A stretch of DNA of 64,000 bases. Origin: Verrucomicrobiia bacterium. Lineage in GTDB: Bacteria; Verrucomicrobiota; Verrucomicrobiia; Limisphaerales; UBA11358. The DNA lies in NCBI GenBank assembly GCA_036510395.1, contig DATCDZ010000152.1, positions 4,325 to 68,324 of the forward strand, in the 5' to 3' direction. Below, piece by piece: positions 12,650 through 56,829 of this stretch. Numbering within the stretch: the stretch's first letter is position 1; every line of letters starts with the position of its first letter. A program made the translations under genes and the position numbers. A model generated the notes under the pieces. That model ran no database searches. It was not told where the DNA came from and worked only from the letters and a program-made list of their open reading frames with translations.

Positions 12650-12656
12650 ACGGCGG

Positions 12657-12950
12657 TCAGTCCAGCGGGTAATCGTCGTGGTCATAATAGTCCGGCGGTT
12701 CCCACAACGGCGGGGCAAACGGTGGTGGTGGTGGCGTTCCCGGCAATTGAATGAAAATCGCTGGCCGGACGTGGGACATGGGTTTTCCTCTCTTTGGTCG
12801 CAATGCGCCGCATAATACCCACACCAAAAGAGCCAGCAAAAGATAGATGGCTCCGATGAGAAAATAGAGCGCATGGTCGTGAACGAATCCGTCAAGGTGT
12901 TTCAATCCCGACGTTTCCAGTTCGAGTGCCTTAATTTGCCAAGGTTGCAT
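12657..12950 (-). CDS. Small membrane protein with a Pro-rich acidic tail (hypothetical)
   Basis: Preferred start is ATG 12950, preceded by GGAGGA (12955-12960) directly after the integrase stop. TM segment: YFLIGAIYLLLALLVWVLCGAL. Tail: PPPPPFAPPLWEPPDYYDHDDYPLD. The track start at 13007 would overlap the integrase. Confidence 0.5.
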   Translation of the reverse strand: MQPWQIKALELETSGLKHLDGFVHDHALYFLIGAIYLLLALLVWVLCGALRPKRGKPMSHVRPAIFIQLPGTPPPPPFAPPLWEPPDYYDHDDYPLD

Positions 12951-12960
12951 GGTGTCCTCC

Positions 12961-14034: not shown

Positions 14035-14059
14035 GAATAACTGAAGCCGGTTCCGCAGA

Positions 14060-14082
14060 GTTAGCGAGTAGTGGGCGGGTTA
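14060..14082 (-). promoter_or_regulatory. Element-specific conserved box upstream of the integrase
   Basis: GTTAGCGAGTAGTGGGCGGGTTA is identical over 23 nt to 7751-7773. In the gene direction it is TAACCCGCCCACTACTCGCTAAC, ending 43 nt before ATG 14016. Confidence 0.55.
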
Positions 14083-14188
14083 GTGCCGGTTACGCTAGAT
14101 TCTAACGGAGTAGATAAACTGGTGTCCGTTCTGGTGTCCTTTGACACCCTCGCACCTCTTAAACCATTGCTGCAATAACAGTTAGGAA

Positions 14189-14263
14189 TGGAGGCGGGAG
14201 TCGGAATCGAACCGACGAATGCAGCTTTTGCAGAGCCGTGCCTTACCACTTGGCTACCCCGCC
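14189..14263 (-). tRNA. tRNA-Cys (anticodon GCA), CCA encoded
   Basis: The reverse complement GGCGGGGTAGCCAAGTGGTAAGGCACGGCTCTGCAAAAGCTGCATTCGTCGGTTCGATTCCGACTCCCGCCTCCA folds by hand into a cloverleaf. It has a 7-bp acceptor stem, anticodon loop CUGCAAA and T-arm GTCGG-TTCGATT-CCGAC. Confidence 0.93.
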
Positions 14264-27988: not shown

Positions 27989-28939
27989 TCAACCTTTCAC
28001 CCGCAACAATTTCAACGCCGCCAGAAAATCCTCCGGCAGCGGCGCTTCAAACGTCATCAATTTTTTCCGGCGCGGATGAAAGAACGACAGTTCGCGCGCG
28101 TGCAGCATCACGCGCGGCGCGGCGTAATTCGTCAGTTCCTTCAGCCGCGCATTTTGCCGCGCGCCGTAGGTGTCGTCGCCCACGAGCGGATGGCCGATGA
28201 ACTGGAAATGCACGCGGACTTGATGCGTGCGCCCGGTGTGTATCTGCGCCTCCATCAACGTCGCCGCGTAAAGCCGTTCGAGAATCCTGTAGCTCGTGTG
28301 CGCGGCGCGGCCGGTGCTGTCGCCGCTCACGGCCATGCGTTTGCGGTGCGTGGGATGCCGCGCGATGGCGGCGTGAATTTCGGCGGTGGCGCGGCCCGGT
28401 TCGCCGCAGACGAGCGCGTGGTAAATCTTTTTTACTTCGCGCGCCGCGAATTGTTCCGAGAGCGCGAGGTGCGTCTCGTCGTTCTTGGCGACGACGAGGC
28501 AGCCGCTGGTTTCCTTGTCGAGCCGGTGGACGATGCCGGGCCGCGCCACGCCGCCGATGCCGCTCAACGAGCCTTTGCAATGATGCAGCAGCGCGTTGAC
28601 GAGCGTGTGTTCCTCGTGCCCGGCGGCGGGATGCACGACGAGTCCGGCGGGTTTGTTGACGACGAGCAGCGTTTTGTCCTCGAACAGAATGTCGAGCGGA
28701 ATTTTTTCCGGCTGCGCCTGGGCGGGCTTGGCTTCCGGCCAATGGACTTCAATTTTTTCGCTCGCGTGCGGATGATGCGTAGGCTTGACGATTTCGCCGT
28801 TGACGCGGATGTGGCCTTCTTCAATCAGCCGGTGCAGCGCGCCGCGCGAGGCGGTGGGAAATTTCTCGCAAAGGAATTTGTCGAGCCGCTCTTTCGGAAG
28901 CGATTTTTCGACGGTAAAATTTTCAGTTCGATTTTTCAT
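27989..28939 (-). CDS. rluD: 23S rRNA pseudouridine synthase RluD-type (S4 domain + RluA core)
   Basis: RLDKFL...NKPAGLVVHP...HRLDKETSGCLVVAK...GRTHQVRVH. Confidence 0.85.
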   Translation of the reverse strand: MKNRTENFTVEKSLPKERLDKFLCEKFPTASRGALHRLIEEGHIRVNGEIVKPTHHPHASEKIEVHWPEAKPAQAQPEKIPLDILFEDKTLLVVNKPAGLVVHPAAGHEEHTLVNALLHHCKGSLSGIGGVARPGIVHRLDKETSGCLVVAKNDETHLALSEQFAAREVKKIYHALVCGEPGRATAEIHAAIARHPTHRKRMAVSGDSTGRAAHTSYRILERLYAATLMEAQIHTGRTHQVRVHFQFIGHPLVGDDTYGARQNARLKELTNYAAPRVMLHARELSFFHPRRKKLMTFEAPLPEDFLAALKLLRVKG

Positions 28940-29023
28940 CCGCAGATTACACAGATTTTCGCAGATTAAATTTATGACTTGTTTTTAATCTGCGTTCATC
29001 GACGAAATCTGCGGAAAAAGTTT

Positions 29024-29539
29024 TCATTTGGATTCTGCGGATTTCGGCGCGTGTTCATTTTTCCAGGTGATGAGGAAAATCAATCCGACGCCGGTGCAAA
29101 TGGCGCTGTCGGCGATGTTGAACGCGGGGAATCCGATTTCACCGCCGCCGCGCCGGTGCATATAAAAATAAATGAAATCCACGACGGCATGGCGTCCGGG
29201 CAAAAGCCGGTCGGTGAGATTTCCAGCGATGCCGCCGAAGATGAGTCCGAACGCGATCTGCCCCGACAGCGTGTGCGAATCGAAATGGCGCCGCGTGAGA
29301 AACAGCGCGACGAGCGCGAACAGGGCGACGAGCGCGAGCGCGCCGTTGTTGCCCCGAAACAGGCTCCACGCCGCGCCGGTGTTGCCCCAGTGGACGAATT
29401 TGAAGAACCCTGGAATGATGATTTTTTCCTGAAATTCGGGCAGCGTTTCCAGAACGAGCCATTTGGTGAACTGGTCGAGCGCGAGTATGAACAGCGCGAG
29501 CACGGCGATGCGGCGGTTTGATTTCGGGAAAACAGTCAT
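29024..29539 (-). CDS. lspA: Lipoprotein signal peptidase II
   Basis: Start chosen at MTVFPKSNRRIAVLALFILALDQFTKWLV. Motifs include NTGAAWS and FNIADSAI. The longer track ORF (to 29764) reads through the heptamer hairpin. Confidence 0.85.
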   Translation of the reverse strand: MTVFPKSNRRIAVLALFILALDQFTKWLVLETLPEFQEKIIIPGFFKFVHWGNTGAAWSLFRGNNGALALVALFALVALFLTRRHFDSHTLSGQIAFGLIFGGIAGNLTDRLLPGRHAVVDFIYFYMHRRGGGEIGFPAFNIADSAICTGVGLIFLITWKNEHAPKSAESK

Positions 29540-29541
29540 TG

Positions 29542-29629
29542 AGTCCAAAGTCCGAAGTCCGAAGTCCAAAGTCAAGCCAGCCGCGCCGTTGAATTTAGGC
29601 TTTGGACTTTGGGCCTTGGACTTTAGACT
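29542..29629. repeat. Long hairpin built of heptanucleotide arrays (AGTCCRA x5 facing its complement)
   Basis: AGTCCAA AGTCCGA AGTCCGA AGTCCAA AGTCAAG ... loop ... GGCTTTGGACTTTGGGCCTTGGACTTTAGACT, between the divergent lspA and NYN genes. Confidence 0.8.
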
Positions 29630-29635
29630 GCGTTC

Positions 29636-30106
29636 ATGGCGCTCGTGCGAATCCTTGTTGACGGCTACAGCCTGTTGCACAACTGGCCGGAACTGGCGGA
29701 AGGTGCGCCGCGCCACTCCGCGCTCGCGCGGGACGAACTGGTGCAAATCCTGACGCAATATCACGATGCGACGGGCGAACCGGTCACAATTTTTTTCGAC
29801 GGTTCGGGCGCGCCGCCCAACACGCCGAAAAGCGAATCGAGCCGCGACGTGGAGGTTTTATTTTCGCGCGCGGGACAAACGGCGGACGACATGATCGAGC
29901 GCGCGGCGCATCGTTTTCAAAGTTACGGCGAAGTCCTCGTCGTGACGGACGACCATGCGGAGCGCGACATGGTAAGCGGGTTTGGCGGGTCGGTGGCGAG
30001 CTGCGCGAATTTCATCTGCATGATCGGCGGGGCGCTGGCGGAACTGAAGGACGAGTTGAAGAACCACAACCGCGCGGAGCGGAACCGTTTTAACCGGTCG
30101 CGCTGA
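29636..30106 (+). CDS. YacP/Rae1-like NYN-domain ribonuclease
   Basis: ILVDGYSLLHNWPEL...VTIFFDG...VEVLFSRAGQTADDMIE...VLVVTDDHAE parallels B. subtilis YacP. Confidence 0.8.
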   Translation: MALVRILVDGYSLLHNWPELAEGAPRHSALARDELVQILTQYHDATGEPVTIFFDGSGAPPNTPKSESSRDVEVLFSRAGQTADDMIERAAHRFQSYGEVLVVTDDHAERDMVSGFGGSVASCANFICMIGGALAELKDELKNHNRAERNRFNRSR

Positions 30107-30116
30107 AGCAACGCCA

Positions 30117-31226
30117 ATGGAAAAACAGAAACATCCCGGCCATTCATTTTTGCGCGGGCGGATTTTCGCCGCGCTGCTTGCGGGAATTTTTTTAATTCCG
30201 GCGGCGCGCGCCCAGACGGACGAGCGGCGGCCGGTCGAAAATCGTTTCCTGCTCATTTTCGACACTTCGGCGGACATGAAAAAGCGCGTGACGGCGGAGC
30301 AGAAAACGCTGGACAATCTTTTCCTGACGAGCTTTATCGGGCAGTTGCAGTCGGGCGACAGCATCGGCGTGTGGGCGTTCGACAAGGATTTGCGGACGGA
30401 TCAGTTCCCGTTGCAATACTGGTTGCCATCCGAGGCGGCGACGATCGCGGCAGACATCAATTCATTCGTTGAAAAACAGCATTATGCCAATGACACCAGC
30501 TTTGGCTCCTTGCAGCCGTGGCTGAACGAAGTCGTAACGAATTCGGAACGGCTGACGGTGCTGATTTTTTTTGACGGCGAAACCGCGGTCAGCGGGACGC
30601 CGTATGACGACAAGATCAATCCCATTCTCCAGCGGCGGCAGGCTGAACAAAAAAAGGCGCGCCAGCCGTTTGTCATCGTGCTCCGCGCGCAATTGGGGCA
30701 ATACATCGGATGCACGCTGGATTTCCCCCCCACGCCGTTGAGTTTTCCCGATTTCCCGCCGCTGCCGCCGCCGCCCGCGCCGCCCGCGCCGCCCATTCAA
30801 CCGCCGCCCGCGCCTCCGAAGCGAGTTGTCATGCAGTCAATCATCATGATCAACACAAACTCGGAGGCAAAGCCGCCGCCTGCGCCGCCCGCGCCGAAAT
30901 TGGAGATGACCAATTCGCCATTGCCCGTCGCGCTGACAAATCCGGTTCCAGAAACCAACGCCGTCTCCGCCCCGGAAATAATTTCAACGGCAGAAACAAA
31001 TTTGGCTGCGGAAACCAGCGCCGTCTTTGCCCCGGATAAAATCCCGGCGGCAGAAACCAATGCATCGGCGTTGCCGCCGGAAAAATCCGGGCTGGGCGGC
31101 GGCGGCGCGCTGGCAATTGGCGTCGCGCTTTTGGTCGCGGCGGGTGGATTGACAGCATTTATTCTGCGCCGTTCGCGCCAATCCGGCCACGCCAGCCTCA
31201 TCACGCGCTCGATGAGGAAAAAATAA
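30117..31226 (+). CDS. Secreted VWA-like protein with a Pro-rich linker and C-terminal TM anchor
   Basis: Signal peptide (AALLAGIFLIPAARA). FLLIFDTSADM is MIDAS-like. Linker: PPLPPPPAPPAPPIQPPPAPP. C-terminus: GGALAIGVALLVAAGGLTAFIL. Confidence 0.55.
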   Translation: MEKQKHPGHSFLRGRIFAALLAGIFLIPAARAQTDERRPVENRFLLIFDTSADMKKRVTAEQKTLDNLFLTSFIGQLQSGDSIGVWAFDKDLRTDQFPLQYWLPSEAATIAADINSFVEKQHYANDTSFGSLQPWLNEVVTNSERLTVLIFFDGETAVSGTPYDDKINPILQRRQAEQKKARQPFVIVLRAQLGQYIGCTLDFPPTPLSFPDFPPLPPPPAPPAPPIQPPPAPPKRVVMQSIIMINTNSEAKPPPAPPAPKLEMTNSPLPVALTNPVPETNAVSAPEIISTAETNLAAETSAVFAPDKIPAAETNASALPPEKSGLGGGGALAIGVALLVAAGGLTAFILRRSRQSGHASLITRSMRKK

Positions 31227-31270
31227 TTTACGGCGTGACTTTTTGCCGCGCGCGTGGAAAAATCCGCGCC

Positions 31271-31981
31271 ATGAAAGCAATGATTTTTGTCTGCGCCCTT
31301 GGAATCGCCGCGAGTTTCGCGCTGGTTTCATGCACCCAAACCGACCAGACTGCAACCAATAATCCGCCGCAGGACAAAACGCCGGCGTCCGTCGCGGCAG
31401 GATTTGATGATCCCGCCAAGCTCACCGAGAAGGCGCCGGAAACTTTCAAGGCGCAGTTCGACACGACCAAGGGCAAGTTCACCGTTGAAGTCGCCCGCTC
31501 GCTCGCGCCCAACGGCGCGGACCGTTTTTACAATTTGGTCAAGTCCGGCTATTTCACGGACATCGCCTTCTTTCGCGTGATTCCCGGCTTCATGGTTCAA
31601 TTCGGAATTCATGGCGATCCCGCAGTTTCCGCAAAATGGCGTGACGCAAACATCACCGACGATCCGGTCAAGGGCAGCAACACACGCGGCACAATCACCT
31701 TCGCCACCGCAGGCCCCAACACGCGCACCACACAGTTGTTCATCAACTTCGGAAACAACACCGGCCTCGACGGGCAGGGCTTCGCACCTTTCGGCAATGT
31801 GATTGAAGGCATGGACGTGGTGGCCAAAATCAATAGCGAATATGGCGAAGGTTCTCCGAACGGTCGCGGGCCAGATCAGCAGCGCATCCAAATGGAAGGC
31901 AATGCTTACTTGAAAAAAGATTTTCCGAACCTCGATTACATCAAGTCCGCAACCATCCTTCCCGCCGATTCCGTAAAATAA
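31271..31981 (+). CDS. Cyclophilin-type peptidyl-prolyl isomerase, lipoprotein
   Basis: MKAMIFVCALGIAASFALVSC is a lipobox. Cyclophilin core: FFRVIPGFMVQFG...GTITFATAGPNTRTTQLFIN. Confidence 0.85.
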   Translation: MKAMIFVCALGIAASFALVSCTQTDQTATNNPPQDKTPASVAAGFDDPAKLTEKAPETFKAQFDTTKGKFTVEVARSLAPNGADRFYNLVKSGYFTDIAFFRVIPGFMVQFGIHGDPAVSAKWRDANITDDPVKGSNTRGTITFATAGPNTRTTQLFINFGNNTGLDGQGFAPFGNVIEGMDVVAKINSEYGEGSPNGRGPDQQRIQMEGNAYLKKDFPNLDYIKSATILPADSVK

Positions 31982-32000: not shown

Positions 32001-32579
32001 ATGAGCGAACTCGCAGTCATCAGCACCACCGAAGGCGACATGGTCGTCGAATTCTGGCCGGACGTCGCGCCCGGCCACGTCGAGAATTTCAAGAAACTCG
32101 CGCAAACTGGATTTTACGACGGCACGGCATTTCATCGCGTCATCAAAGGCTTCATGATCCAAGGTGGCGACCCGCTGACGAAGGACGCAGGCAAGGAACA
32201 CGCCTGGGGCACCGGCGGCTCCGGCCACACGATCAAGGCCGAGTTCAACGACAAGGCCCACGTTCGCGGCGTCCTCTCGATGGCGCGCTCCAACGATCCC
32301 AATTCCGCCGGCTCGCAATTTTTCATCTGCCACGGCGACCCGCGTTTTCTCGACCGCCAATACACCGCATTCGGCAGGCTCATCAAAGGCGACGACGTTC
32401 TCGAAAAAATCGCCACCACGCCAACGCATTCCGGCGACCGGCCCGTCAAACGCGTGGGCGTCACCAGCGTAAAAATTGTTCCGGCGCATAGCTCGCGCTC
32501 ATCCGCTTCGGATTGCTCAACAAATCCTGTGTGCCGATGCAAACGAGACAATCGTGCGCGTGCGAATCGCTTTTGTTGA
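32001..32579 (+). CDS. ppiB: Cytoplasmic cyclophilin PPIase with an abnormal ~35-aa C-terminal read-through
   Basis: FHRVIKGFMIQGGDP...SMARSNDPNSAGSQFFI. Homology ends near ...VTSVKIV (~32480). The ORF continues to 32579, antisense to the dnaE fragment. Confidence 0.8.
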   Translation: MSELAVISTTEGDMVVEFWPDVAPGHVENFKKLAQTGFYDGTAFHRVIKGFMIQGGDPLTKDAGKEHAWGTGGSGHTIKAEFNDKAHVRGVLSMARSNDPNSAGSQFFICHGDPRFLDRQYTAFGRLIKGDDVLEKIATTPTHSGDRPVKRVGVTSVKIVPAHSSRSSASDCSTNPVCRCKRDNRARANRFC

Positions 32580-33231
32580 TGTAATGAACGTCGTTCGTCG
32601 CGACGAGCTTCAGGCCAAATTCCTTCGACCATTTGATCAAAAAATTGTTGACCTTCGCCTGTTCGGGAATGCCGTGGTTTTGCAGTTCGAGGAAAAAATT
32701 TTCCGCGCCGAGCGTCTGCTTGAAAAAGTCCACGGCGTCGCGCGCCTTGTCCAGCTGGTCTTTCATGATCCAGTCAGGAATCTCACTGGCGAGGCAGCCG
32801 GACATCGCGATCAACCCTTCGCTGTGCGCGGCGAGGATTTCCTTGTCAATGCGCGGCTTGTAATAATAGCCCTCCAGATGCGCGGCGGTCGTGAGCTTGA
32901 TGAGATTTTTGTAGCCGGCTTCGTCCTTCGCGAGCAAACCGAGATGATGATAAACATCGCGTGTGCCGCCGCCGCCGCCACCGCCGGATTTTTTTTCCAA
33001 TCGCGAGCCGGGCGCGACGTAAACTTCGCAGCCGATGATGGGTTTGATGCCCTTCGCACGCGCGGTCTGGTAAAATTCAATCGCGCCATGCATCGCGCCG
33101 TGGTCGGTGATGGCGAGCGAGGAAAATTTCAGTTCGTGCGCCTTGTCCACGAGCCGGTCAAGACGGCATGCGCCATCGAGCAATGAATACTCGGTGTGCA
33201 GATGAAGATGAACAAAATCGGCGTGCGACAT
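32461..33231 (-). pseudogene. dnaE: DNA polymerase III alpha (DnaE) N-terminal PHP-domain fragment (256 aa of an expected ~1150)
   Basis: FVHLHLHTEYSLLDGACRLDRLVDKA...LAITDHGAMHGAIEFY...GIKPIIGCE...FLELQNHG...VATNDVHYINKSDSHAHDCLVCI...NPKRMSASYAPEQFLRW*. No DnaE-like sequence follows in any frame. Confidence 0.7.
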
Positions 33232-33318
33232 GAAAATAATTTAACTTCTAATCGCCGGGAGACCAAGCTTCAGAAGTAAAATTTTTATGAACTGGCGGAT
33301 TTCCGGCGAATTTGAAGC

Positions 33319-34338
33319 TCACGTCGTCGCTAAAATATTTTCCAGCGCGGCAAAGACTTGTTCCGGTGAAATTCCGGCCATGCAATGGCGCGGGCTGGTG
33401 CAAAAATGGGAGGCGTCGTCGCAGGTGCATTTTGGTCTCTGGATGACGCGGTGTTGCGCGCCGACTGGACGCCAGCGTGTCGGCGACGTGGATCCGAACA
33501 GCCCGATGGTCGGCACGCCCAGCCCGGCGGCGAAATGCATCGGGCCGGTGTCGTTGGAAATGCAGGCGCTGGCGCGCTTGATTACAGCCAGCAGCGTGGC
33601 GAGATTCGTGGGCGGCAGCGCGATGATTTCAGGAACAAGATTTTTCAACTCCTGCAACAGCGCCATTTCGCGCGGATTGGCGCCCATGGTGAAAATTAAT
33701 TTGAAGCCGGCGGTTGTGGCCATCCGATGAAACGCCGCCCAGTGGCCGGACGGCCATTCTTTTTTCGCCATATTTGAACCGATGTGGCAAATGACGGCTC
33801 CATCCGGCAAATTTTTTCCCGCCGCCGCCGCATCCCATTCGGAACTGGTGTGCAATCGGATGTTGATGTCCGATTCAGGCGGCGGCTGGATGCCCCAAGG
33901 CGACAAGAAATCCAGCAGACGCGTAGTTTCATGGCAATCCTGGCGGGTGAGCGGCGGGACATATTGAGTGCAACAAAAACGGCGGCCAACAAAACCTTTT
34001 TCGTAAAGCGGAGCAAGCCTTTCGCGCGCGCCGCACAGGAGGCTCATGATCGCCCCGCGATCGTTGCCGCCAAAATCAACCGAACGGTCAAACCGTTCCG
34101 CCCGCAACGCGCGGATGACCGGCCAGCTCTGTTTGAAAAGTGCGCGTCCGCGAACGCGTGGGATCAGCCAAAGCCGTGTGATGGAGGGTTCGTTTTGCAA
34201 AAGCGGCCCGACCGATTCCGGCGCGAGGACGTGCAGCGCGCAACCGGGATAATGCCGCCGGATCGCCTGAAGCGCGGGAATCATCATCACCGCATCGCCC
34301 AAGGATTTGAACTGGATGGCGAGGATTTTTTCGGGCAT
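33319..34338 (-). CDS. Glycosyltransferase family 9 (heptosyltransferase-like)
   Basis: ILAIQFKSLGDAVMMIPALQAIRRHYP...NDTGPMHFAAGLGVPTIGLFG. Confidence 0.85.
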   Translation of the reverse strand: MPEKILAIQFKSLGDAVMMIPALQAIRRHYPGCALHVLAPESVGPLLQNEPSITRLWLIPRVRGRALFKQSWPVIRALRAERFDRSVDFGGNDRGAIMSLLCGARERLAPLYEKGFVGRRFCCTQYVPPLTRQDCHETTRLLDFLSPWGIQPPPESDINIRLHTSSEWDAAAAGKNLPDGAVICHIGSNMAKKEWPSGHWAAFHRMATTAGFKLIFTMGANPREMALLQELKNLVPEIIALPPTNLATLLAVIKRASACISNDTGPMHFAAGLGVPTIGLFGSTSPTRWRPVGAQHRVIQRPKCTCDDASHFCTSPRHCMAGISPEQVFAALENILATT

Positions 34339-34414
34339 TTGGAAAATGAATTTAAATTATTGCCCAAGACGAAAAAAACAGCCGGTCGAAACCCGGCTGG
34401 TGATTCCAAAAAAG

Positions 34415-35878
34415 CTATTTCTTTTTTTTGAAGTCTTTGCCAAGACGCGCAGCCAGTTTTTTATGCGGCTTGAAACGCGCGTCAATCACCGGACCCAAAA
34501 TGGATGCAAACTTGCGCCGCGACGCGTTCAATTCCCAAAGCAAAGACGGACGGATGAACCCGATCTCGACCGCGTCCTGCACTTCTTTCCATGTGACATA
34601 GCCGGAGTCCAGCGCCTCGCGCAAATGGCCGGCCCAAAGCGCGCCGTTGCGGTTCTTCCGGCTTACCCACGGCTGCGTGTGCATGTCCGTGTAATGGATC
34701 AAATTTGTTTTGCCGGGCGCATATTCTTCCAGTGAATTCCATTCCGGCGGCAACGCGGCGCGGACGGTGTCTGCCGGTTCCAGGCAAACTTCCTTCATCA
34801 ATTGATCGTAATTATAGCGGCCTTCGTCCAGCCCGCGCACGATTTCGTTCAAGTCCCATTTCAAGCGCGAACAATCCAGCAAAAGCACGGCGAATTGTTT
34901 CGGGCGTTTCGGATCGGACGTGGCGCAATGCAGCACGGTCGCGCCGTTAAAAGGCCGGTCCCATAAATCCTGGAAATTCCGCAGCACGAGCATGTCTGCA
35001 TCCAGATAAACCGCGCGTCCGCGATAGCCAGCCAGTTTTGGAATGGCAAAACGACTGAATGAAAAACCTGTTCGCGGCTGGTTTTTCGGATCTTTGGGCA
35101 TCGGAGTTTTCACATGAAGCATATGGTCGAACACGACCGGCAGCGCGCAATGTTTCAAAACGGAAAATTCCAGCACGTGCGCGCCGAGCAACTGGCTTTC
35201 GTCCGTGCCGATGAAAATGCGCACGGGCGTTTCGCTCGTGAGCGGCGCAAAATCAATCCCGTGCCGCCGCACCGTCGAGATCATTCCGTCAAACTGGAGG
35301 TCGAAAGTATTGTGGCCGTTGGCGAGGCGCGTTTTGTCGTCGAGGTCTTTGAATTGCGGCGCGTAGGCGCTGCCGCCGTCCACGCCGAGCGTGCGGATGG
35401 ATTTCGCGCCGGCCGCCGCCAGCAGGCTGATCATCACTTCCGCGCTGAAATAGCCATTTGGAATTTTTGGCGAACCGGTCTCCTGCTGTTCCGAGGAGGC
35501 AAAGTTATACCACACAAGCCGGTTCTCGCGGTCGAGCTTTTTGAGAATTGGAAATTCGTCGAAAAAAGTTTCGAGCGGACGTTTTGCCGCCTCGTGCTTG
35601 ACGTGCGGATAGCGAGGCATCAAAAGAAATCTGGCGTTGCGGTCAATCGCCTCCGCGCAATCGCCCACGACATCAATGTCAATGACGCTGGCCACTTCAA
35701 CGGGCATTTCGCGGACGACGTGGTTGAGCGATAATTTGCGAAACGCGCCCAAGTCAAATTCATTCCTGCGATCCAGTGACAGGCCTTTGCCCAAGACAAG
35801 CCATGAGCCTTTGCCACCGTTGATTTCCGACCACCACTGTTTTAATTCTTTCATAATTGGTTTGCCGCTCAAATTCAA
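34415..35878 (-). CDS. Two-domain protein: unknown N-terminal domain + GT8-like glycosyltransferase
   Basis: The C-terminal half has RIFIGTDESQ...AVYLDADMLV (DxD)...NLIHYTDMHTQPW. I recognise no family for the N-terminal ~215 aa. Confidence 0.65.
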   Translation of the reverse strand: MNLSGKPIMKELKQWWSEINGGKGSWLVLGKGLSLDRRNEFDLGAFRKLSLNHVVREMPVEVASVIDIDVVGDCAEAIDRNARFLLMPRYPHVKHEAAKRPLETFFDEFPILKKLDRENRLVWYNFASSEQQETGSPKIPNGYFSAEVMISLLAAAGAKSIRTLGVDGGSAYAPQFKDLDDKTRLANGHNTFDLQFDGMISTVRRHGIDFAPLTSETPVRIFIGTDESQLLGAHVLEFSVLKHCALPVVFDHMLHVKTPMPKDPKNQPRTGFSFSRFAIPKLAGYRGRAVYLDADMLVLRNFQDLWDRPFNGATVLHCATSDPKRPKQFAVLLLDCSRLKWDLNEIVRGLDEGRYNYDQLMKEVCLEPADTVRAALPPEWNSLEEYAPGKTNLIHYTDMHTQPWVSRKNRNGALWAGHLREALDSGYVTWKEVQDAVEIGFIRPSLLWELNASRRKFASILGPVIDARFKPHKKLAARLGKDFKKKK

Positions 35879-35993
35879 GCTGCTGCCTGCTGCCGCGCAA
35901 TGACATTTGATCTACCCCTGAAAATTCTGCAATTCTTGCCCGACGGATCACGGCGCTTAATGCCAACTCCGGCCAAATTAGGCAAGGCGATAA

Positions 35994-37067
35994 ATGATTG
36001 CGCTTCGCCGGCTGCCTTTGATTTTTTGCTCGACTTGTTTCCTTCAAGCATCCAAAAGTGGCGTTTTAATTGTGATCGGTTGGAAGCCATTTTCGTGGGA
36101 TTCAAATACTGCCAGCGCGCGCCTGCGCTGCTTCGTGCCATGCGCGCAGCTCAAGCAGGCCGGCTGGCCTTGCGAGCTTTTTGAAATTTCTCGTTTGAAC
36201 GATTACAAGTTGGTTGTCTTCCAAAAAGCCTACACAACGGAAGACATAGGGCTGGCCCGGCAACTCAAGGCGCGCAAGGCAAAAATCGTCTTCGACCTGT
36301 GCGACAATCATTTTTATCGAATGACCCACCAGCCTAATCGCGCCGAAGAACTCCACCGCCTTGAACAGATGGTTGAACTGGCCGACATGGTTTCGGTTTC
36401 GACATCCGAACTGGCGAAACTGATCCCTCAAAAAACGACGGCCGTGATTGACGACGCCATGGAAGATTTTTCCGAAAACGGATTGCGAAATTTTTTCATC
36501 CGTAAATTCGGCCTTTGGCATCATCGTTTTTCCAAGTGCGTGCGGCTGGTCTGGTTTGGAACCGCAGGATCCGAAGATCCGCCGTTCGGTTTAATAAACC
36601 TTGCGGCGATCGTCTCGGAACTGAACGAGTTGAATGTTTCAATGCCCGTTTCCTTGACAGTCCTGAGCAATTCCAAAGACAAATTTGAGAAGCAGATTCG
36701 CGATGTAAAATTTCCGGTGCGCTTTTACAAATGGAACAGGGATTCCTTCCGCGCCATTTTTCAACAGCATGACGTTTGCCTGCTGCCGATTTCCAAAAAT
36801 CCTTTCACTGTTTGCAAAACCAACAATCGTTTGTTGCTGTCGCTGCGCTTGGGCATTCCGGTCGTGGCGGATAAAATCCCAAGCTACGAAGAATTTTCCG
36901 GTTTTGTTCCCTTCGGTGACTGGCAAAAGAATATCCGCGCTTACATTGAAAATCCTGAATCAGGCCGCGCGTCTGTCAAAAATGCCCAGGCTTATATCCA
37001 AAACAAGTATCACGATAAGCGCACGGTCCAACAATGGTCTGATCTGCTCGGTTCAATGCTGTATTGA
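35994..37067 (+). CDS. Putative glycosyltransferase (GT1/GT4-like C-terminal half)
   Basis: The only + strand gene of the cluster. ...HDVCLLPISKNPFTVCKTNNRLLLSLRLGIPVVADKIPSYEEF. The start is uncertain. Confidence 0.5.
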   Translation: MIALRRLPLIFCSTCFLQASKSGVLIVIGWKPFSWDSNTASARLRCFVPCAQLKQAGWPCELFEISRLNDYKLVVFQKAYTTEDIGLARQLKARKAKIVFDLCDNHFYRMTHQPNRAEELHRLEQMVELADMVSVSTSELAKLIPQKTTAVIDDAMEDFSENGLRNFFIRKFGLWHHRFSKCVRLVWFGTAGSEDPPFGLINLAAIVSELNELNVSMPVSLTVLSNSKDKFEKQIRDVKFPVRFYKWNRDSFRAIFQQHDVCLLPISKNPFTVCKTNNRLLLSLRLGIPVVADKIPSYEEFSGFVPFGDWQKNIRAYIENPESGRASVKNAQAYIQNKYHDKRTVQQWSDLLGSMLY

Positions 37068-37077
37068 TCGTCACTGG

Positions 37078-37872
37078 TCAGATCGGGCTTTTTTGTGAAG
37101 GCCGGTCCAGTCCCATTTTTCTCGAAATGTCGCCGTTATCAATGAAATCGGGCTGGTTCAATTGCCTGCACAAACCGGCGAATTCTTCCGCGCAGTCGCC
37201 GATGCGCAGAAACGGCGTCGCGCTCAACAAATTGATTTTGCGTTCGCGCAACGCCTCCCGGATTTCGCGCAAGCCTTCGTAATATTCACGGTAGCGCACA
37301 TTCGGATCGTTGCCGGCCCATAAAGTGTGCTGTGCGTGCGCGTGATGATTGTCCGCCAGCGGGGCATTGTCGCAACCGACGAGGATGATGTTTTTCGCGC
37401 CCATGTTCGTCGCCAGATTCACCGCCGACTGCGAAATCGAACTCCAAAGATAAAGATAATTTTCAACCGGTCTGCGAAGCCAGTCCAGATTGCGCCCGGC
37501 CACGCTGGCCTGCCCTTGGATCAGGCTCTCCTTGTTCTCGGGCCGCACAAAATCAAAATAGTAGAATCGCGCTGCGTGGGTTTCGGCAAATTTTCTTTGT
37601 TTGGGCGTGGTGAACTTGATGTATTTTGTGATCCACACGATTTCTTCGCGTGATTCGCCCGTCAGAAATTCAGGGATGTTCAGTTCGGGGCGAATCGTGA
37701 TGCCGTATTTGACGGGCAACATTTGCCACGCCTGGTTCAGCCCGATGGTTATTTTGTCCTCCAGAAACGAAAGCGGGAAGACGCGCAAACTCGTGCCTGT
37801 GCCGACCACATATATGTCCGCGCCCTTGTGCGCACCGTAGAGTTGGCTGACGTAATTCATGGCACGAATCAA
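37078..37872 (-). CDS. DUF115/MptE-like (motility-accessory-factor-like) putative glycosyltransferase
   Basis: GADIYVVGTGTSL...AKNIILVGCD. Confidence 0.5.
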   Translation of the reverse strand: MIRAMNYVSQLYGAHKGADIYVVGTGTSLRVFPLSFLEDKITIGLNQAWQMLPVKYGITIRPELNIPEFLTGESREEIVWITKYIKFTTPKQRKFAETHAARFYYFDFVRPENKESLIQGQASVAGRNLDWLRRPVENYLYLWSSISQSAVNLATNMGAKNIILVGCDNAPLADNHHAHAQHTLWAGNDPNVRYREYYEGLREIREALRERKINLLSATPFLRIGDCAEEFAGLCRQLNQPDFIDNGDISRKMGLDRPSQKSPI

Positions 37873-38750
37873 CTTTTCTGCAAAAGATCAAGCACATCAG
37901 GCCGCACATGTTGTTTTTGCATTTCGTCCTTCAAGAAATCCTCCGTGAAAACTTTGTTGTCCAGACATTCCTTCATCAGATTGATGCAAAAACGCTCCTG
38001 ATTTGAATCGGGATGCTTGAGGTATTTTTCTTCCGTCTGCACCGGCGCTTTTTTGGCGGGCGAAAGCCAGCTCCAAAAGCCGCGCCTGGCCGGTGCGGTG
38101 CGGTAATTCATGTTGTAATCCACAGGCAAACCGGTTTTCCACGGCTGCGTCGAGCGCTCTGTGTTGTGCAGCAATTTGGTTTTTTCGTTGAGCGTGTCGA
38201 AATGGTTCCATTCCTCTTCCAATTCCAAAATGGTGTTCGGGTCTTCGTCGCGCAAAAAAATCCAGTCGCCGTAATCCAGCTTGTGCGCGAACAACCGGTC
38301 AATTTTTTTGTTCCAGTCCCAATGCGGCAGTTGCCCGCAATCCAGCAGCATGGCGCTGGTCGCGTAATAAGGTTTTCCATTGTCCGATTTGATGAGGCGG
38401 CAGACGATTTTTTTTCCGCCCATGTCGCGGTTCAGCAATTCCCAAACGTCAGCCACGGCGAAAATGTCCGGGTCGAGCACCAGTGCGCGTCCTTGAAAAC
38501 CCATTTCCTGCGGCGGCAGAAAACGGATCAGGCTGAACGATTGCAGGTCGCGGTTGTTCCAGGTCACGACGGCGCCTTTGCGGATGTAAGTCTCGCTCTG
38601 ACGTTTGGTCAGGTGCGGATAATCTACCAGATTCAGGATACGCACGTCAAACTTCTCGTTGTTCCGCGAGGCTTTGCGAAGCGAATACTCCGACATTTTC
38701 GCGCCGATCATTTGAACGGGATTCGTATGAATGAACACGGTCGGTTTCAT
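37869..38750 (-). CDS. Nucleotide-diphospho-sugar transferase (GT8-like)
   Basis: RALVLDPDIF...LLHNTERSTQPW parallels the GT8-like domain of 34415-35878. Confidence 0.55.
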   Translation of the reverse strand: MKPTVFIHTNPVQMIGAKMSEYSLRKASRNNEKFDVRILNLVDYPHLTKRQSETYIRKGAVVTWNNRDLQSFSLIRFLPPQEMGFQGRALVLDPDIFAVADVWELLNRDMGGKKIVCRLIKSDNGKPYYATSAMLLDCGQLPHWDWNKKIDRLFAHKLDYGDWIFLRDEDPNTILELEEEWNHFDTLNEKTKLLHNTERSTQPWKTGLPVDYNMNYRTAPARRGFWSWLSPAKKAPVQTEEKYLKHPDSNQERFCINLMKECLDNKVFTEDFLKDEMQKQHVRPDVLDLLQKS

Positions 38751-38782
38751 GGATTGACTTTATTCGGCGTCTTCCGCCGCCG

Positions 38783-38842
38783 TCAATGCTTTTGCGCGAT
38801 GACGTAAGAAAATTTATTTTGGCGGCGATGAAGCAACGCCAG
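38783..38842 (-). pseudogene. Duplicated, internally deleted copy of the 3' end of methyltransferase gene 39547-40515
   Basis: TCAATGCTTTTGCGCGATGACGTAAGAAAATTTATTTTGGCGGCGATGAAGCAACGCCAG aligns with 39547-39621 except for indels. Confidence 0.7.
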
Positions 38843-38843
38843 A

Positions 38844-39533
38844 TCAAGCGGTCTTGGGCTTTTTGGTGCCGACGAGGTTGATCATGCTGGGCACCAGCAA
38901 ATATGGGGCGCGAGTGAACATTCGTGGCGGCGGCCCTATCGGCGAGACTGACGGCGGCGGACGGACTTTCGATTCCTCAGACGTTATAGATCCGCGATAG
39001 ACAACGAATTGATTTGGATCTTCATCAAAACCGGCACTTTCTCCGAAGGCATTGGAGGTGATGCTGTTCAATTCTTTTGCAAAATCAAAATCCGGGAAAA
39101 GGTATTTGAGTCCGGCCGGCGTGAACCGCCAGAAATCATTCGGATATCCATGAAACCGCCATGTAAAAGGCGCGGAAAGAAAGAGCGTGCCGCCCGGTTT
39201 GGTGATACGCGTCAGATTCTGCGCGAACTTGAATATGTTGTCCACATGCTCAATGACGCTGCAACAGATGATCGCCCCGAACTCCCGCCCCAGCTTCTCA
39301 CGAACAACTGAAAAATCCGCCGTGAAATCAACCACCATGTCCACATTGTTCCCCTCCGACATATCCACGCCAACATATTCCAAGCCGTCGAACAGGCTTC
39401 GATAACCAATCGCCGATTTGGTGGCGTAATGGCGCGAACCGATTTCGAGGATTGGAGGATTTGCCAGGTGTCGGTTGGTTCGCACCCATTCGAGTTGGTT
39501 TTTATCGCCCATCGCGCTGTTTGTTTTCCACAA
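38844..39533 (-). CDS. Class I SAM-dependent methyltransferase
   Basis: ILEIGSRHY...VGVDM...FGAIICCSVIEHV...PGGTLFLSAP. Confidence 0.75.
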   Translation of the reverse strand: MWKTNSAMGDKNQLEWVRTNRHLANPPILEIGSRHYATKSAIGYRSLFDGLEYVGVDMSEGNNVDMVVDFTADFSVVREKLGREFGAIICCSVIEHVDNIFKFAQNLTRITKPGGTLFLSAPFTWRFHGYPNDFWRFTPAGLKYLFPDFDFAKELNSITSNAFGESAGFDEDPNQFVVYRGSITSEESKVRPPPSVSPIGPPPRMFTRAPYLLVPSMINLVGTKKPKTA

Positions 39534-39546
39534 CCCTGCATCCGTG

Positions 39547-40515
39547 TCAACACTTTTGCGCGATGACGTGATAACGGTCGCATAAATTTATTTTGGCGGC
39601 GATGAAGCATGGCAGCGCCAGCACGGCGACGCCAAGCGGCGCGTCAACGAGACTGGGGATTTTTTCGTGCTTCATCCAGCCCATATCTGCGAGCAAAAAT
39701 CCCGCGCTGCGAGCGACGTCCTTCGTGACGAATTCCGGAAAAATTTCAACGGATTGAAAACCGGCCTTCTTCAGGCAATCCGCGACGAGCTGCGGCGAAA
39801 ATAAAATGATGTGCCGCGGACAATCCAAGCCCAGCCAGCGGCTGCCGAAAAGCCGGCTGCCCAAACCTGCGGGGTTAGGCGTGGCCAGATGCAACCTGCC
39901 GCCGGGCTTCAATTTACGGAATAAATGTTGCAGCACGTCGGCCGGATCGTAAAGGTGTTCGATGACATGATTCATCCGCACCAGCGTCAGCGATTCGTCA
40001 GGAATTTCCCGCCACAATTTTTCGCCGGCGATTAAACCGCCATGCCCGGCAGCCTTGACTTTTTCGACAACGGATTCGGAAAAATCCACGCCGATGGTCC
40101 GCCAGCCTTTGTGTTTTGCTGTGCCAAGAAATTTTTCCGAGCCGCAGCCATAGTCGAGAAAAACGGAATATCCACGCGGCGGTTGATAAAGCGCTTTCAG
40201 GCGATGCCGCAGCTTGCGCGTTCCGGAGTTCAACAATTTGCCAGTCGCCTTGCGAAAAAATCCCGGCGTGGCCGTTTGTTTCCATTTTTGATATGGCCCG
40301 TAGTCGGACGGATAAAATTTTGAGATCTCCGCCGGGGCTGGCGGCGCGGCCTGGAAACACGCGCCGCACGCGCCGCAGCGCAAATAAATAAATTCATCAT
40401 CGGTGATGCGCAGCAGGCGGTCGCGACCGCGCGTCCAGAAAGAACAGTCGCAGGCGTGGCATACCGGGCAGCAGGATTGAGAAGAAAACGGCAGTTTATT
40501 CATAGATGGATTCAT
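39547..40515 (-). CDS. SAM-dependent methyltransferase with N-terminal Cys4 zinc ribbon
   Basis: CPVCHACDC...CGACGACF; FLDYGCGSEKF...VGVDFS...RMNHVIEHLYDP...PGGRLHLATPN. Confidence 0.75.
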   Translation of the reverse strand: MNPSMNKLPFSSQSCCPVCHACDCSFWTRGRDRLLRITDDEFIYLRCGACGACFQAAPPAPAEISKFYPSDYGPYQKWKQTATPGFFRKATGKLLNSGTRKLRHRLKALYQPPRGYSVFLDYGCGSEKFLGTAKHKGWRTIGVDFSESVVEKVKAAGHGGLIAGEKLWREIPDESLTLVRMNHVIEHLYDPADVLQHLFRKLKPGGRLHLATPNPAGLGSRLFGSRWLGLDCPRHIILFSPQLVADCLKKAGFQSVEIFPEFVTKDVARSAGFLLADMGWMKHEKIPSLVDAPLGVAVLALPCFIAAKINLCDRYHVIAQKC

Positions 40516-41508
40516 CCGCTTGCGCGCATTTATTCAAAGGGACAGTTTGTGGGCGCGACATATTTCCTGAGGAACTCCACAATTTTTTACATCGGTTAAT
40601 TTTGTGCTTGATCCAGAAGATGGCATGCCAGCCTGAACCCAGCATCTGCTTCATTTCCGCAAGGGTGGCGCTCGTTTTCGCGGCGGGCAATCTTCGGAGC
40701 GCATGGATTTGGGCAAAGAGCATCTGTCGTGTGGTCATTTTCCGCAGCCATGGTTTGGCGAAATATTCTTCCAGCAATTGTAAGCTCTCGTTTTTCGTGT
40801 GGCCTCTTTTTTGATTGAATCTGGTCTGCTGCATTGCGTGCTGGCGGAACGCGCAGAGCGTCTCGGCGAGATAGCCGAATTTTCCGTTCTCCAGCAGATG
40901 AAACCACATCTCCATATCCACAAACTGGCTGTAACGCGAGTCATATCCGCGCGCGTCCTGCGGATTTCGGAACATCACGAGCGTCGGTTCACCAATCAAA
41001 TTTGCAGGACGCTCCAGGCAGCGCACGATGATTTTTTTTCCGTCCCACACTCCATCTTGAAAATAGTTCCGAGTCTCAATCACCCGCGAGTGCGCATCAA
41101 TCACTTCCGAAGCGGACGCGACCAGTGAGATGGCAGGATCGCTTTCCATCAGGCCGGCCATTTGGCTGATGGCCGAAGATGAGAGCAGTTTGTCATCGCC
41201 GAAAATAAATTTAACGTATTCTCCGCGCGCCTGTGACAGGCACCAGTTCCAGTTTTGCACCATGCCGAGATTCGCCGGATGAACGTGAAAGCGAATGCGG
41301 TTGTCCTTGGCGGCGTAGCGGGCAATTACCTCGGCGGAATTGTCCGTCGAACAGTCATCGCTGATGAGCAATTCGAAATCCTGATAATCCTGTCCGAGGA
41401 TGGATTCAATCGCCTCCGGCAAATACCGCGCATAATTATATGTCGGAATCAGGACGCTGGCTTTTGGGGCTATCATAGGACGTTTCTCGTTGGACAAATG
41501 CGCGTTCG

Positions 41509-41512
<4 letters not shown>
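40496..41512 (-). CDS. Glycosyltransferase family 2
   Basis: ASVLIPTYNYARYLPEAIESILGQDYQDFELLISDDCSTDNS. Confidence 0.85.
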
Positions 41513-43332
<1,820 letters not shown>

Positions 43333-43386
43333 GGTTTCGGCAATTATGCGCGCACACGCCGAGCAAGGCGAGCAGTTTGTCGGCCT

Positions 43387-44268
43387 TCAGCGGACAAGGC
43401 GGTAATGTTTTTTGTTGAACCGCAGCCCGAACCATTGCTCGAGTCTCAACATGACGCGGTGTTTTTTTTCGCGCGAAGTCAGCTTGTGATCCGGGTCGGC
43501 CTGAAAAATCCCGTCCGCCTTTGGCAGCCATTTCTGCACGGCTTTTGGATGCGTGCCTTCAAATAATTTGAGCGTGGCCGGATCAATTTGCGCGTAGTCA
43601 ACGGACGCCGAAGGCTTCAAATTTTTCTCCCAGTATTTTCCGATGGCGGAAACTTTCAGGTTCATCTGTGCCTCGCTCCGCGCCCAGCCGTAATGATAAA
43701 CCGTCGCGCCCGTGTGCGCCGCGCGCGGATGGCGCGATTTTTTGTGTCCGGCAAGCACGTTGAAAAAAAGCGCCTCGGACGACCACGCGGGAATCGTATT
43801 GCGGATGATCCGCACCTCGCTGCGATACCAGCGCGGCGACCACGCGAAGGTGTTCACGTTGCCGTAAAAATGCAGGTAGTCGAACGCCAGCGCCTCGACA
43901 CGTCCGTCATCCAGATATTTTTCCATCGCCGCGCGGATTTTCGGCAGGTCATTTTCGTGGATGACCTCGTCGGCTTCGAGGTAAAACGCCCAGTCGCCAG
44001 TGCAATTGAACAGCGCGATGGATTTTTGCTGGCCATAGACAAAACCGCCCACGCTGTAATCGCCGCGCAGCCGTTCGTTCCATTGCGTCGGAATAATGCG
44101 GATTTTCGGATCGCCAATTTCCAGCAGCAATTTTTCCGTGTCATCGTCACACGGGCCGAGCGCGACGACAAATTCATCCACCAGCGGCAAAATGGAGCGG
44201 ATGGATTCGGCGAACGGATAGCCGAGCTTCCGCCCGTTCCGCAAAAATGTGAAGCCGCTGATTTTCAT
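43387..44268 (-). CDS. Glycosyltransferase family 2-like
   Basis: ISGFTFLRNGRKLGYPFAESIRSILPLVDEFVVALGPCDDDT...YLEADEV. Confidence 0.65.
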   Translation of the reverse strand: MKISGFTFLRNGRKLGYPFAESIRSILPLVDEFVVALGPCDDDTEKLLLEIGDPKIRIIPTQWNERLRGDYSVGGFVYGQQKSIALFNCTGDWAFYLEADEVIHENDLPKIRAAMEKYLDDGRVEALAFDYLHFYGNVNTFAWSPRWYRSEVRIIRNTIPAWSSEALFFNVLAGHKKSRHPRAAHTGATVYHYGWARSEAQMNLKVSAIGKYWEKNLKPSASVDYAQIDPATLKLFEGTHPKAVQKWLPKADGIFQADPDHKLTSREKKHRVMLRLEQWFGLRFNKKHYRLVR

Positions 44269-44293
44269 TCGCAGGTTTTTTTCATCGCGCGGT

Positions 44294-45109
44294 TCAATGG
44301 TAGTAATAACGGATTTTCCCCGCCACGCGCAATTCCAGCAGCGTGTGTCCGTGCCACAGCCGCTCGAAAATTTTTCGCCAGTTGCCGGCCGTTTTCCGGC
44401 GGATCCGGTTCCAGCGCCGCTGCGCCCAGTTGATTTTCCATTTCCTGCGAAAATATCCGACCGTTTCCGCGCGCGTCGAGCCGCGCGCAGTTTTGAGAGC
44501 CTTCTGCGTCACGCTGCCAAAATGATGGATGTAGGTGCAGCCGCTGACGGCCATCTTGATGCCCGCTTTTTGCGCCCGCCAGAAAAAATCCGTGTCCTCG
44601 TTCCCGCCCTTGTTGAAATTCTCGTCAAAATTCCCAATCACCTCGAACACACTTCGCGCGACCATGAAGCAAACGCCAGAGGCGGTTCCGCGCCGTTGCA
44701 CGGCCTTCATGCTGGCGACATATTCGTGGGCGTAAAGGGACAGGTCATAATCCAGATCGCCCTCGCCCATGCCCGGACTTGCGATGTCCACGCCGTTTTT
44801 TTCCGCGAAATTCAAGAGGCTTTCCAGCCAGCCGGCCGGCACGACCGTGTCATTGTTGAGAAAAACCGTCCACTTCGTTTTGCCGGCCTCAAAACCCTGG
44901 TTCCACGCGGCTGAACACGCACGGTTTTCAGGATTGTGAATCACGCACAACTTCGGTCGCGTCGCCAGAAATTCCGCCGTCCCGTCCGTCGAGGCGTTGT
45001 TGATGACGACAATCATCGAATCGTTGCAGCCCGCCGCGTTGAGGCTTTCAAGGCACTGCCGCGTGAAATGCAGTTGGTTAAAGACAGGAATGACGATGGT
45101 GACGTCCAT
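44294..45109 (-). CDS. Glycosyltransferase family 2
   Basis: VTIVIPVFNQLHFTRQCLESL...VINNASTDGT...FLNNDTVV. Confidence 0.8.
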   Translation of the reverse strand: MDVTIVIPVFNQLHFTRQCLESLNAAGCNDSMIVVINNASTDGTAEFLATRPKLCVIHNPENRACSAAWNQGFEAGKTKWTVFLNNDTVVPAGWLESLLNFAEKNGVDIASPGMGEGDLDYDLSLYAHEYVASMKAVQRRGTASGVCFMVARSVFEVIGNFDENFNKGGNEDTDFFWRAQKAGIKMAVSGCTYIHHFGSVTQKALKTARGSTRAETVGYFRRKWKINWAQRRWNRIRRKTAGNWRKIFERLWHGHTLLELRVAGKIRYYYH

Positions 45110-56768: not shown

Positions 56769-56829
56769 CCCAAATGTTGCAAAGGCCGCATGATTTCCAC
56801 ATCATCCGGCCAATCAACGAAAGGATTTT

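Follow-up and report, generated by a model that had tools for sequence, protein, structure and literature searches.

A dnaE gene reduced to its PHP domain and joined to a read-through ppiB: probable scar of a recent recombination in a soil Verrucomicrobia lineage

How a gene for the replicative DNA polymerase comes to end within its first domain, inside a neighbor which has lost its own stop codon, is the question raised by a 64,000-nucleotide stretch of DNA from a Verrucomicrobiia bacterium (Limisphaerales, UBA11358; GenBank assembly GCA_036510395.1, contig DATCDZ010000152.1, positions 4,325 to 68,324), here called the window. Near its middle, a minus-strand dnaE cut down to the PHP domain overlaps a convergent ppiB, a cyclophilin gene reading through its normal end. 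An illegitimate recombination, recent and restricted to a single clonal lineage of soil Verrucomicrobia, has probably left its scar here, the shortened dnaE being a young gene remnant. The features involved are the following.

27989-31981, strand not assigned: native ppiB neighborhood (rluD-like, lspA, NYN/YacP, a 369-residue protein, ppiA-like cyclophilin), in the same order in the relatives' contigs L009, L012 and L176.
32001-32579, plus strand: ppiB, cyclophilin-type peptidyl-prolyl isomerase (PPIase) of 192 residues; PF00160 at residues 6-158; a 30-residue tail replaces the C-terminal DSVK.
32461-33231, minus strand: 5' remnant of dnaE, 256 codons, PHP domain only, native start codon.
32471-32486, strand not assigned: probable recombination junction, the 16-nt AAAAATTGTTCCGGCG, compatible with both parents; dnaE homology ends at 32471, ppiB homology at 32482-32486.
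32487-32579, plus strand: ppiB read-through tail (HSSRSS...NRFC), antisense to dnaE codons 218-248, with no homology to any ppiB.
33232-33268, minus strand: native dnaE 5' leader upstream of the remnant; blastn against relatives' contigs L007 and L008 reaches 36-37 nt 5' of the start.
33319-34338, minus strand: GT9 heptosyltransferase (Pfam PF01075), native upstream neighbor of dnaE; its presence shows the right flank to be the resident dnaE locus.

The remnant is an open reading frame (ORF) composed of 253 DnaE codons, followed by L254-R255-W256 and a stop which derive from antisense ppiB. The N-terminal PHP domain of DnaE (PF02811, residues 8-186, E 2.6e-57) is the sole Pfam domain in it. 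The 256-residue product aligns to residues 5-242 of Thermus aquaticus (Taq) Pol III alpha (2hpi, E 2e-72) and has residues 1-241 of E. coli alpha as its counterpart, DnaE homology ending at F253 (nt 32471-32473). Palm/thumb (PF07733), fingers (PF17657), HhH (PF14579) and OB fold, the domains of the polymerase core, are all absent from the ORF in a Pfam search, and because they are missing the product falls outside the polymerases: on sequence grounds it is a DnaE1-type PHP domain by descent, and cannot be a polymerase. In relatives, all of these core domains follow PHP. No further DnaE-like sequence was found in the 64 kb by tblastn with the complete DnaE of a relative. These results bear out a sequence-only reading of the window, according to which the ORF is the start of DnaE only, with no DnaE-like sequence beyond it. 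The 988-residue ORF at 9683-12649, considered as the missing part of dnaE, is a TrwC relaxase/helicase and was discarded. The 256-residue product is on record at NCBI as HEY5234021.1, under the title 'MAG TPA: PHP domain-containing protein [Verrucomicrobiae bacterium]' (MAG, metagenome-assembled genome), the longest contig recorded being 68,420 bp.

The Pro_isomerase domain of the convergent ppiB is complete, matching positions 3-158 of the 159 of the PF00160 profile (E 1e-49), and, the whole PPIase domain being intact, the protein is probably functional. PpiB relatives are almost uniformly 166 residues long, end in ..VTSVKIVP[A/R]DSVK, and are at best 90-92% identical to the window protein. 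The latter follows them through VKIVPA (codon 162, nt 32486), and continues with 30 unrelated residues: 30 codons antisense to dnaE stand in place of the last four codons (DSVK) and the stop. The length and C-terminus typical of the family (166 residues, ..VKIVPxDSVK-stop) are not found in the 192-residue protein. The identical sequence excepted, matches to it cover just 83-86% of the query, and no extended ppiB was found in the relatives examined. The two convergent ORFs overlap by 119 nt (32461-32579), as had been noted. Homology had been thought to be lost near ..VKIV (about 32480), leaving some 35 extra codons: the read-through is confirmed, its limits are corrected to VKIVPA (32486) and 30 codons.

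The remnant has full-length counterparts in relatives. Among the matches listed, the closest N-terminal ones are P0003 on contig L007 (97% amino acid identity) and P0004 on contig L008 (96%). On both contigs dnaE runs full length, broken by frameshifts only; neighboring genes are split by the same kind of frameshift, and the frameshifts read as noisy assemblies. The L007 frames, once stitched, give a DnaE of 1202 residues, which was used as query for genome and metagenome scans. Many full-length dnaE genes of Verrucomicrobiia/Limisphaerales were retrieved, dozens of them in the genome scan (best 80 of >600 matches). Wherever the DNA of a relative's locus covers both parts, PHP lies directly 5' of the rest of a dnaE of about 1200 residues, and the similarity to the window fragment stops, without exception, at residue 253-254. 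A stand-alone PHP gene with its own stop was not found in the relatives examined, the 255/256-residue form being confined to the identical clone described below. Since no orthologues feature a PHP-only architecture, the fragment does not represent a conserved stand-alone PHP family. This option, put forward by the sequence-only reading, finds no support, as relatives carry a full dnaE, and a 166-residue ppiB with a normal stop.

Short proteins are found among the top PHP matches. They were rejected as a stand-alone family: the matches on long contigs that were inspected end out of frame, and other genes there are likewise split. None of the 120 proteins listed in each dnaE protein search exceeds 1045 residues; full-length DnaE (1219-1241 residues) is in the protein collection, within clusters represented by partial sequences, so that the listed protein lengths are not readable as gene lengths. 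Many 'src' entries of the collection have no contig on record and resemble protein-level assemblies. One protein, P0001, is a chimeric protein-level assembly containing a SEEHTSELQSP.. segment, a known artefact.

The arrangement recurs. The same overlapping pair of 256- and 192-residue ORFs is found on separately assembled JGI contigs of data sets 3300025703 (8.1 kb), 3300001398 (3.4 kb) and 3300001408 (2.1 kb), and on a 17.6-kb contig of ENA ERZ27294387. The contigs carrying the junction are named JGI20207J14881_1006617, JGI20206J14855_1007100, Ga0208357_1004377 and, at ENA, k141_288394 (L003); the JGI contigs are 100%, the ENA contig 99.7% identical to the window. Because the junction recurs in separately assembled contigs from several samples, it is very unlikely to be an assembly artefact, and the assembly chimera suspected earlier is disfavored. 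Other parts of the window are present in Logan SRR3985524 and SRR3985625. Differences between the ENA contig and the window consist of 35 single-nucleotide polymorphisms clustered in 29832-30323 and a 3-nt indel, the remaining 12.2 kb being identical. The polymorphic patch (about 490 nt) lies in NYN/YacP and the beginning of the following gene, and resembles a short homologous-recombination tract within an otherwise clonal population. In the remnant, a GCC/GGC repeat at 32957-32985 encodes a poly-Gly loop of the PHP domain, made up of 7 Gly in the window and one unit shorter in the ENA contig (32965-32967 deleted); among relatives, both the length and the sequence of the loop are highly variable.

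At the nucleotide level, dnaE homology (blastn identity of 91.5% to L007, 90.3% to L008) runs from about 33268, about 37 nt 5' of the start codon, to 32471, and ppiB homology to L009, L176 and L012 (88-90% nt identity) from 32001 to 32482-32486. The 16-mer where the two meet is unique in the window. It encodes K158 I V P A162 of ppiB on the plus strand, and A249 P E Q F253 of dnaE on the minus strand. At the corresponding site, the ppiB of relatives reads GT(A/C)AAAAT(C/T)GT(C/T)CCGGCGGAT, and the dnaE of relatives, reverse-complemented, AA(A/G)AA(T/C)TGTTCCGGCGCATAG. Each base of the 16-mer is found in the ppiB of at least one relative (GTAAAAATCGTTCC in L012, CCGGCGGAT in L176), and in the dnaE of at least one relative (AAAAAATTGTTC in L007; TGTTCCGGCGCATAG in L095, L170 and L113). 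Because the parental homologies overlap in 32471-32486, the crossover would have fallen in a chance microhomology of about 11-16 nt, and the overlap is what would be expected for microhomology-mediated illegitimate recombination. Mobile-element ends, transposon ends and long repeats were not found above chance at the junction; the scanned junction region has no promoter-like site, and terminator-like hairpins are no commoner in it than in shuffled sequence. Base composition does not change abruptly. A recombination junction at about 32460-32480, having removed the ppiB stop and roughly 900 dnaE codons, had been proposed at the outset, and gains support from both homologies ending within 32471-32486.

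The junction separates two conserved neighborhoods. To the right, at least 14 relatives share with the window GT9 directly 5' of dnaE and, farther 5' and on the strand of dnaE, an MsbA-like ABC transporter; to the left lies the gene order typical of ppiB. As each flank keeps the gene order of relatives, two native loci are joined here, as far as synteny can tell. The synteny comparison, suggested earlier as a check, is favorable: both flanks match the ppiB and dnaE neighborhoods of relatives, and the two are never joined there. ppiB is absent from all the Verrucomicrobia dnaE loci examined, and no dnaE resides in the DNA examined downstream of ppiB in four lineages, where the genes following ppiB are birA-coaX-leuS, or NUDIX-priA-DUF374-ruvA-ruvC. 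None of these genes is in the window; they are likewise absent, as is dnaE, from about 6 kb beyond its right end (contig L177). The two sets, as well as the 3' part of dnaE, include generally essential genes.

An inversion or a translocation between distant loci is therefore favored over a local deletion: ppiB and dnaE do not adjoin in relatives, and a deletion would remove generally essential genes. A deletion would require that ppiB and dnaE were already convergent neighbors, slippage between direct 16-nt repeats having removed the intervening DNA. The parental microhomologies would indeed be in direct orientation on the plus strand if dnaE was already on the minus strand, a single event would suffice, and gene order downstream of both ppiB and dnaE varies between relatives. 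The absence of ppiB from the Verrucomicrobia dnaE loci, the absence of dnaE from the DNA downstream of ppiB in the four lineages, and the need for a back-up copy of the essential genes lost make such an event unlikely. The initial formulation, a deletion or recombination junction, is retained in its second term; a simple local deletion fits poorly with ppiB and dnaE never being adjacent in relatives.

According to the preferred explanation, the crossover would have taken place in the microhomology, AAAAATTGTTCCGGCG on the plus strand, and would have placed the 3' end of ppiB against the resident dnaE at about its codon 253, the two genes converging. The sequence shows the outcome: dnaE retains the leader, the start and the first 253 codons, and ends three codons later in antisense ppiB; ppiB has forfeited its last four codons and the stop, and reads 30 codons antisense into dnaE. 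The rearrangement would be an inversion or a translocation between two distant native loci, not a small deletion, and the 256-codon ORF a remnant too young for decay. The replicative polymerase would be encoded elsewhere, most likely by another dnaE-type gene which is not a recent identical duplicate. An inversion predicts a reciprocal junction, made up by the reverse-complemented ppiB tail (GAYTCNGTNAARTAA), then CGCCGGAACAATTTTT, then YCTGCGNAGYGCNGARGARATGAAR. The event is of an ordinary kind, on an unusual target. As in other bacterial gene remnants made by microhomology, homology to both parents is lost sharply, with an overlap of 11-16 nt and no mobile-element ends; the remnant is lineage-specific, and the partner gene reads through. 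The difference is in the target: the replicase gene, normally essential and single-copy, is hit in its native place, and in a population abundant in its environment.

Several observations weigh against this explanation. The choice between inversion and deletion is inferential. No second dnaE and no relocated 3' part were seen among the matches listed (best 80 or 120), a weak negative. All the contigs carrying the junction come from one clone, possibly from one site, and the arrangement may not have persisted over evolutionary time. The remnant has no sign of decay, the ORF being intact and the start codon native. Over 252 codons compared with L007, the rates of non-synonymous (dN) and synonymous (dS) substitution are 0.011 and 0.39, with a ratio (omega) of 0.028; omega is 0.087 for the L007-L008 pair. 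Residues H10, H12, D19, H44, E69, H96, C146, D214 and H216, which we take to be the PHP metal ligands from the Taq and Mycobacterium tuberculosis (Mtb) DnaE1 structures, are all retained, and are invariant in 35 relatives. Three-point decomposition assigns to the window-side branch dN of about 0.0075 and dS of about 0.29, corresponding to about 4 amino acid changes versus a neutral expectation, for the whole branch, of well above 100. With about 4 changes on the whole branch, the fragment has been unconstrained for at most a few percent of the branch, or is constrained still. By this measure, the event would be recent or the fragment still under constraint, and a single-clone sample fits both.

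Where the replicase of this organism is encoded bears on the next alternative. Pol III alpha is found in every one of about 2000 bacterial genomes surveyed (PMC3919608), so that the organism of the window must have one. In the genome scan with the 1202-residue DnaE, neither the contig of the window nor a second piece was among the best 80 of >600 matches. A metagenome scan with DnaE residues 250-690, approximately, returned no contig from the samples of the clone among the matches listed, the best identity being 90%, and a protein search with residues 254-852 no match at least 94% identical to L007 among 120 listed. Proteins corresponding to the remainder only were rejected as the missing part, those inspected beginning at contig ends. 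Partial DnaE proteins in NCBI were discarded as the remainder from the same metagenome-assembled genome because their accession numbers are far from HEY5234021, and P0242 and P0252 because their source is a different sample or organism. Since all assemblies pass the junction smoothly, and a copy would branch the assembly graph, the dnaE 5' segment is unlikely to be present a second time in identical form; the candidates left are a second dnaE, diverged or foreign, and a 3' part which has been relocated. In a copy either intact or relocated, the sequence would continue as ...CAATTTTT(T/C)CTGCG...

The relocated 3' part could mean that dnaE is split and still functional, an inversion having parted the PHP proofreading domain from the polymerase core, and the two reassembling non-covalently into a working Pol III alpha. 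The core, of about 950 residues, would be made from another locus, where translation would begin at a new start such as the Met of ..SAEEMKARF... Points in favor of a split gene are the disruption of the resident dnaE in a population whose abundance allows assembly in several samples, the presence of Pol III alpha in every bacterial genome surveyed, the smooth passage of contigs through the junction, and the leader, start codon, PHP motif residues and very low omega kept by the remnant. No stand-alone remainder at least 94% identical to L007 is found among the matches listed, in a collection which has the PHP fragment of the clone from three sources. The cut does not fall at a domain boundary: the fragment ends at E. 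coli alpha residue 241 or so, about 29 residues before the end of the 270-residue PHP portion crystallized in the 4gx8/4gx9 chimeras. Residues 215-256 are below pLDDT 50, and are hence predicted to be disordered in isolation, in an AlphaFold (AF2) model of the product (pLDDT, predicted local distance difference test). PHP being the only Pfam domain, an intein or another device for reassembly is missing, and the convergent overlap with ppiB should interfere with expression. A functional split is for these reasons improbable.

In cyanobacteria, the DnaE split lies in the polymerase core, and split-intein halves rejoin the protein. The dnaE-n/dnaE-c genes of these organisms resemble the present case in that dnaE is in more than one piece at separate loci (PMC3919608); the window differs in that the break is at residue 253, within PHP, with no intein domain in the Pfam search and no partner piece found. 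Split-intein (Hint) halves are absent at the break, Pfam detecting PHP only, and the three residues past it being antisense ppiB.

Could selection maintain the fragment itself, in the role of a metal-dependent 3'-5' exonuclease or phosphoesterase acting on its own? All the PHP motif residues are intact, omega is low, and in size the fragment is close to RNase AM and other free-standing PHP phosphoesterases, which have 206-287 residues. A precedent is offered by the Actinobacterial 'PolX-like' proteins, PHP-only derivatives of PolX1 (PMC12926913). These are the nearest conceptual parallel, a polymerase reduced to its PHP exonuclease domain; they form, however, a conserved family in many species, whereas the window fragment is found in one clone and has an accidental antisense ending. 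The low omega is explained by shared history, about 4 non-synonymous changes having occurred on the whole branch, and the fragment is in no relative examined. Its stop and last three codons are accidental antisense ppiB, its C-terminal 40 residues are predicted to be unstructured, and no terminator was found around the 119-nt overlap with ppiB on the opposite strand. Because terminators do not exceed the shuffled background, the convergent transcripts of ppiB and of the remnant must overlap. Retention as an enzyme is, on balance, quite improbable.

The AF2 model has a mean pLDDT of 71 and a predicted template-modelling score (pTM) of 0.71, the core, residues 22-214, being mostly confident. Its best matches are DnaE PHP domains (3e0d; template-modelling score TMq 0.70, 50% identity). 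Stand-alone PHP phosphoesterases (RNase AM/YcdX; 7UG9, 9ETK, 3O0F) share the fold class and a similar length, and are only remotely similar, with TMq of 0.43-0.47, RNase AM and the like being at 0.46-0.47, and 14-16% identity. The fragment corresponds to the orthologous PHP, the first 253 residues, of DnaE1-type Pol III alpha (Taq 2HPI, to which it is 50% identical; Mtb DnaE1 7PU7/5LEW), from which it differs in lacking palm, thumb, fingers, HhH and OB, about 950 residues. The DnaE1 type is regarded as an active proofreader. The fragment would be at best a marginally stable, accidental product.

A chimera of two unrelated contigs joined at a short shared sequence, to which the meeting of the homology blocks exactly at the 16-mer and the origin of the supporting contigs from one clonal population, with read sets possibly overlapping, lend some color, is very unlikely and can hardly be credited, as at least four assemblies of different samples, with differing contig naming styles, span the junction identically, the NCBI record has the 256-residue product, base composition does not shift abruptly, and 16 nt of identity, below the usual k-mer sizes of assemblers, are too few for a false join.

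Placed within 16 nt, the junction is a cleanly documented case of rearrangement mediated by microhomology in a soil bacterium that is uncultured. It also calls for caution in the use of annotations, the label 'PHP domain-containing protein' hiding a dnaE remnant. Since the population thrives although its resident copy of a universally essential gene is broken, it must have either a second dnaE, not identical to the first, or a replicase that tolerates being split between the proofreading domain and the core. A tolerated split, if true, would bear on the autonomy of the PHP proofreader, and would be the first non-intein split of a bacterial replicase, with a free-standing DnaE-type PHP proofreader.

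Further features were noted in the window. The 369-residue protein encoded at 30117-31226 (plus strand) belongs to no Pfam family, and is kept upstream of ppiA-ppiB in relatives with 45-60% identity. Its sequence includes PPPAPPAPP, rich in Pro, and at 30936-31055 the gene carries an imperfect tandem duplication of 60 nt. Upstream of dnaE, a cluster of glycosyltransferase, methyltransferase and ABC-transporter genes, lipopolysaccharide (LPS)- or O-antigen-like, spans 33319-45109. In the profiled portion, about 34.3-37.0 kb, GC content drops to 0.47-0.52; the gene content of the cluster differs strongly among close relatives, only GT9 and the ABC transporter being shared with L007 and L008.

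A probable integrated mobilizable or conjugative element at 9683-14263 adjoins a tRNA-Cys gene (14189-14263, minus strand). It includes the TrwC relaxase/helicase ORF of 988 residues (9683-12649, plus strand) and a tyrosine-recombinase/integrase ORF (12961-14034, minus strand; PF00589, E 1e-9). The element is 18 kb away from the ppiB-dnaE junction, with no evident link to it.

The aldehyde-dehydrogenase ORF at 54839-55654 (minus strand, 271 residues) covers positions 15-232 of the 461 of the Aldedh profile, the catalytic half being missing, and is followed by an unannotated ORF of 137 residues and a convergent pyrB-like gene; truncation may have left a second scar in the genome here. At 56790-59197, a Ser/Thr protein kinase gene beside an ECF sigma factor gene is apparently frameshifted. 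The ORF at 56790-57485 ends with the glycine loop and then goes out of frame, and the ORF at 57428-59197 is Pkinase from profile position 44. The same split, in 231 and 589 residues, is called in another assembly (L178, ERZ27294331), and is for this reason probably a real pseudogene or polymorphism.

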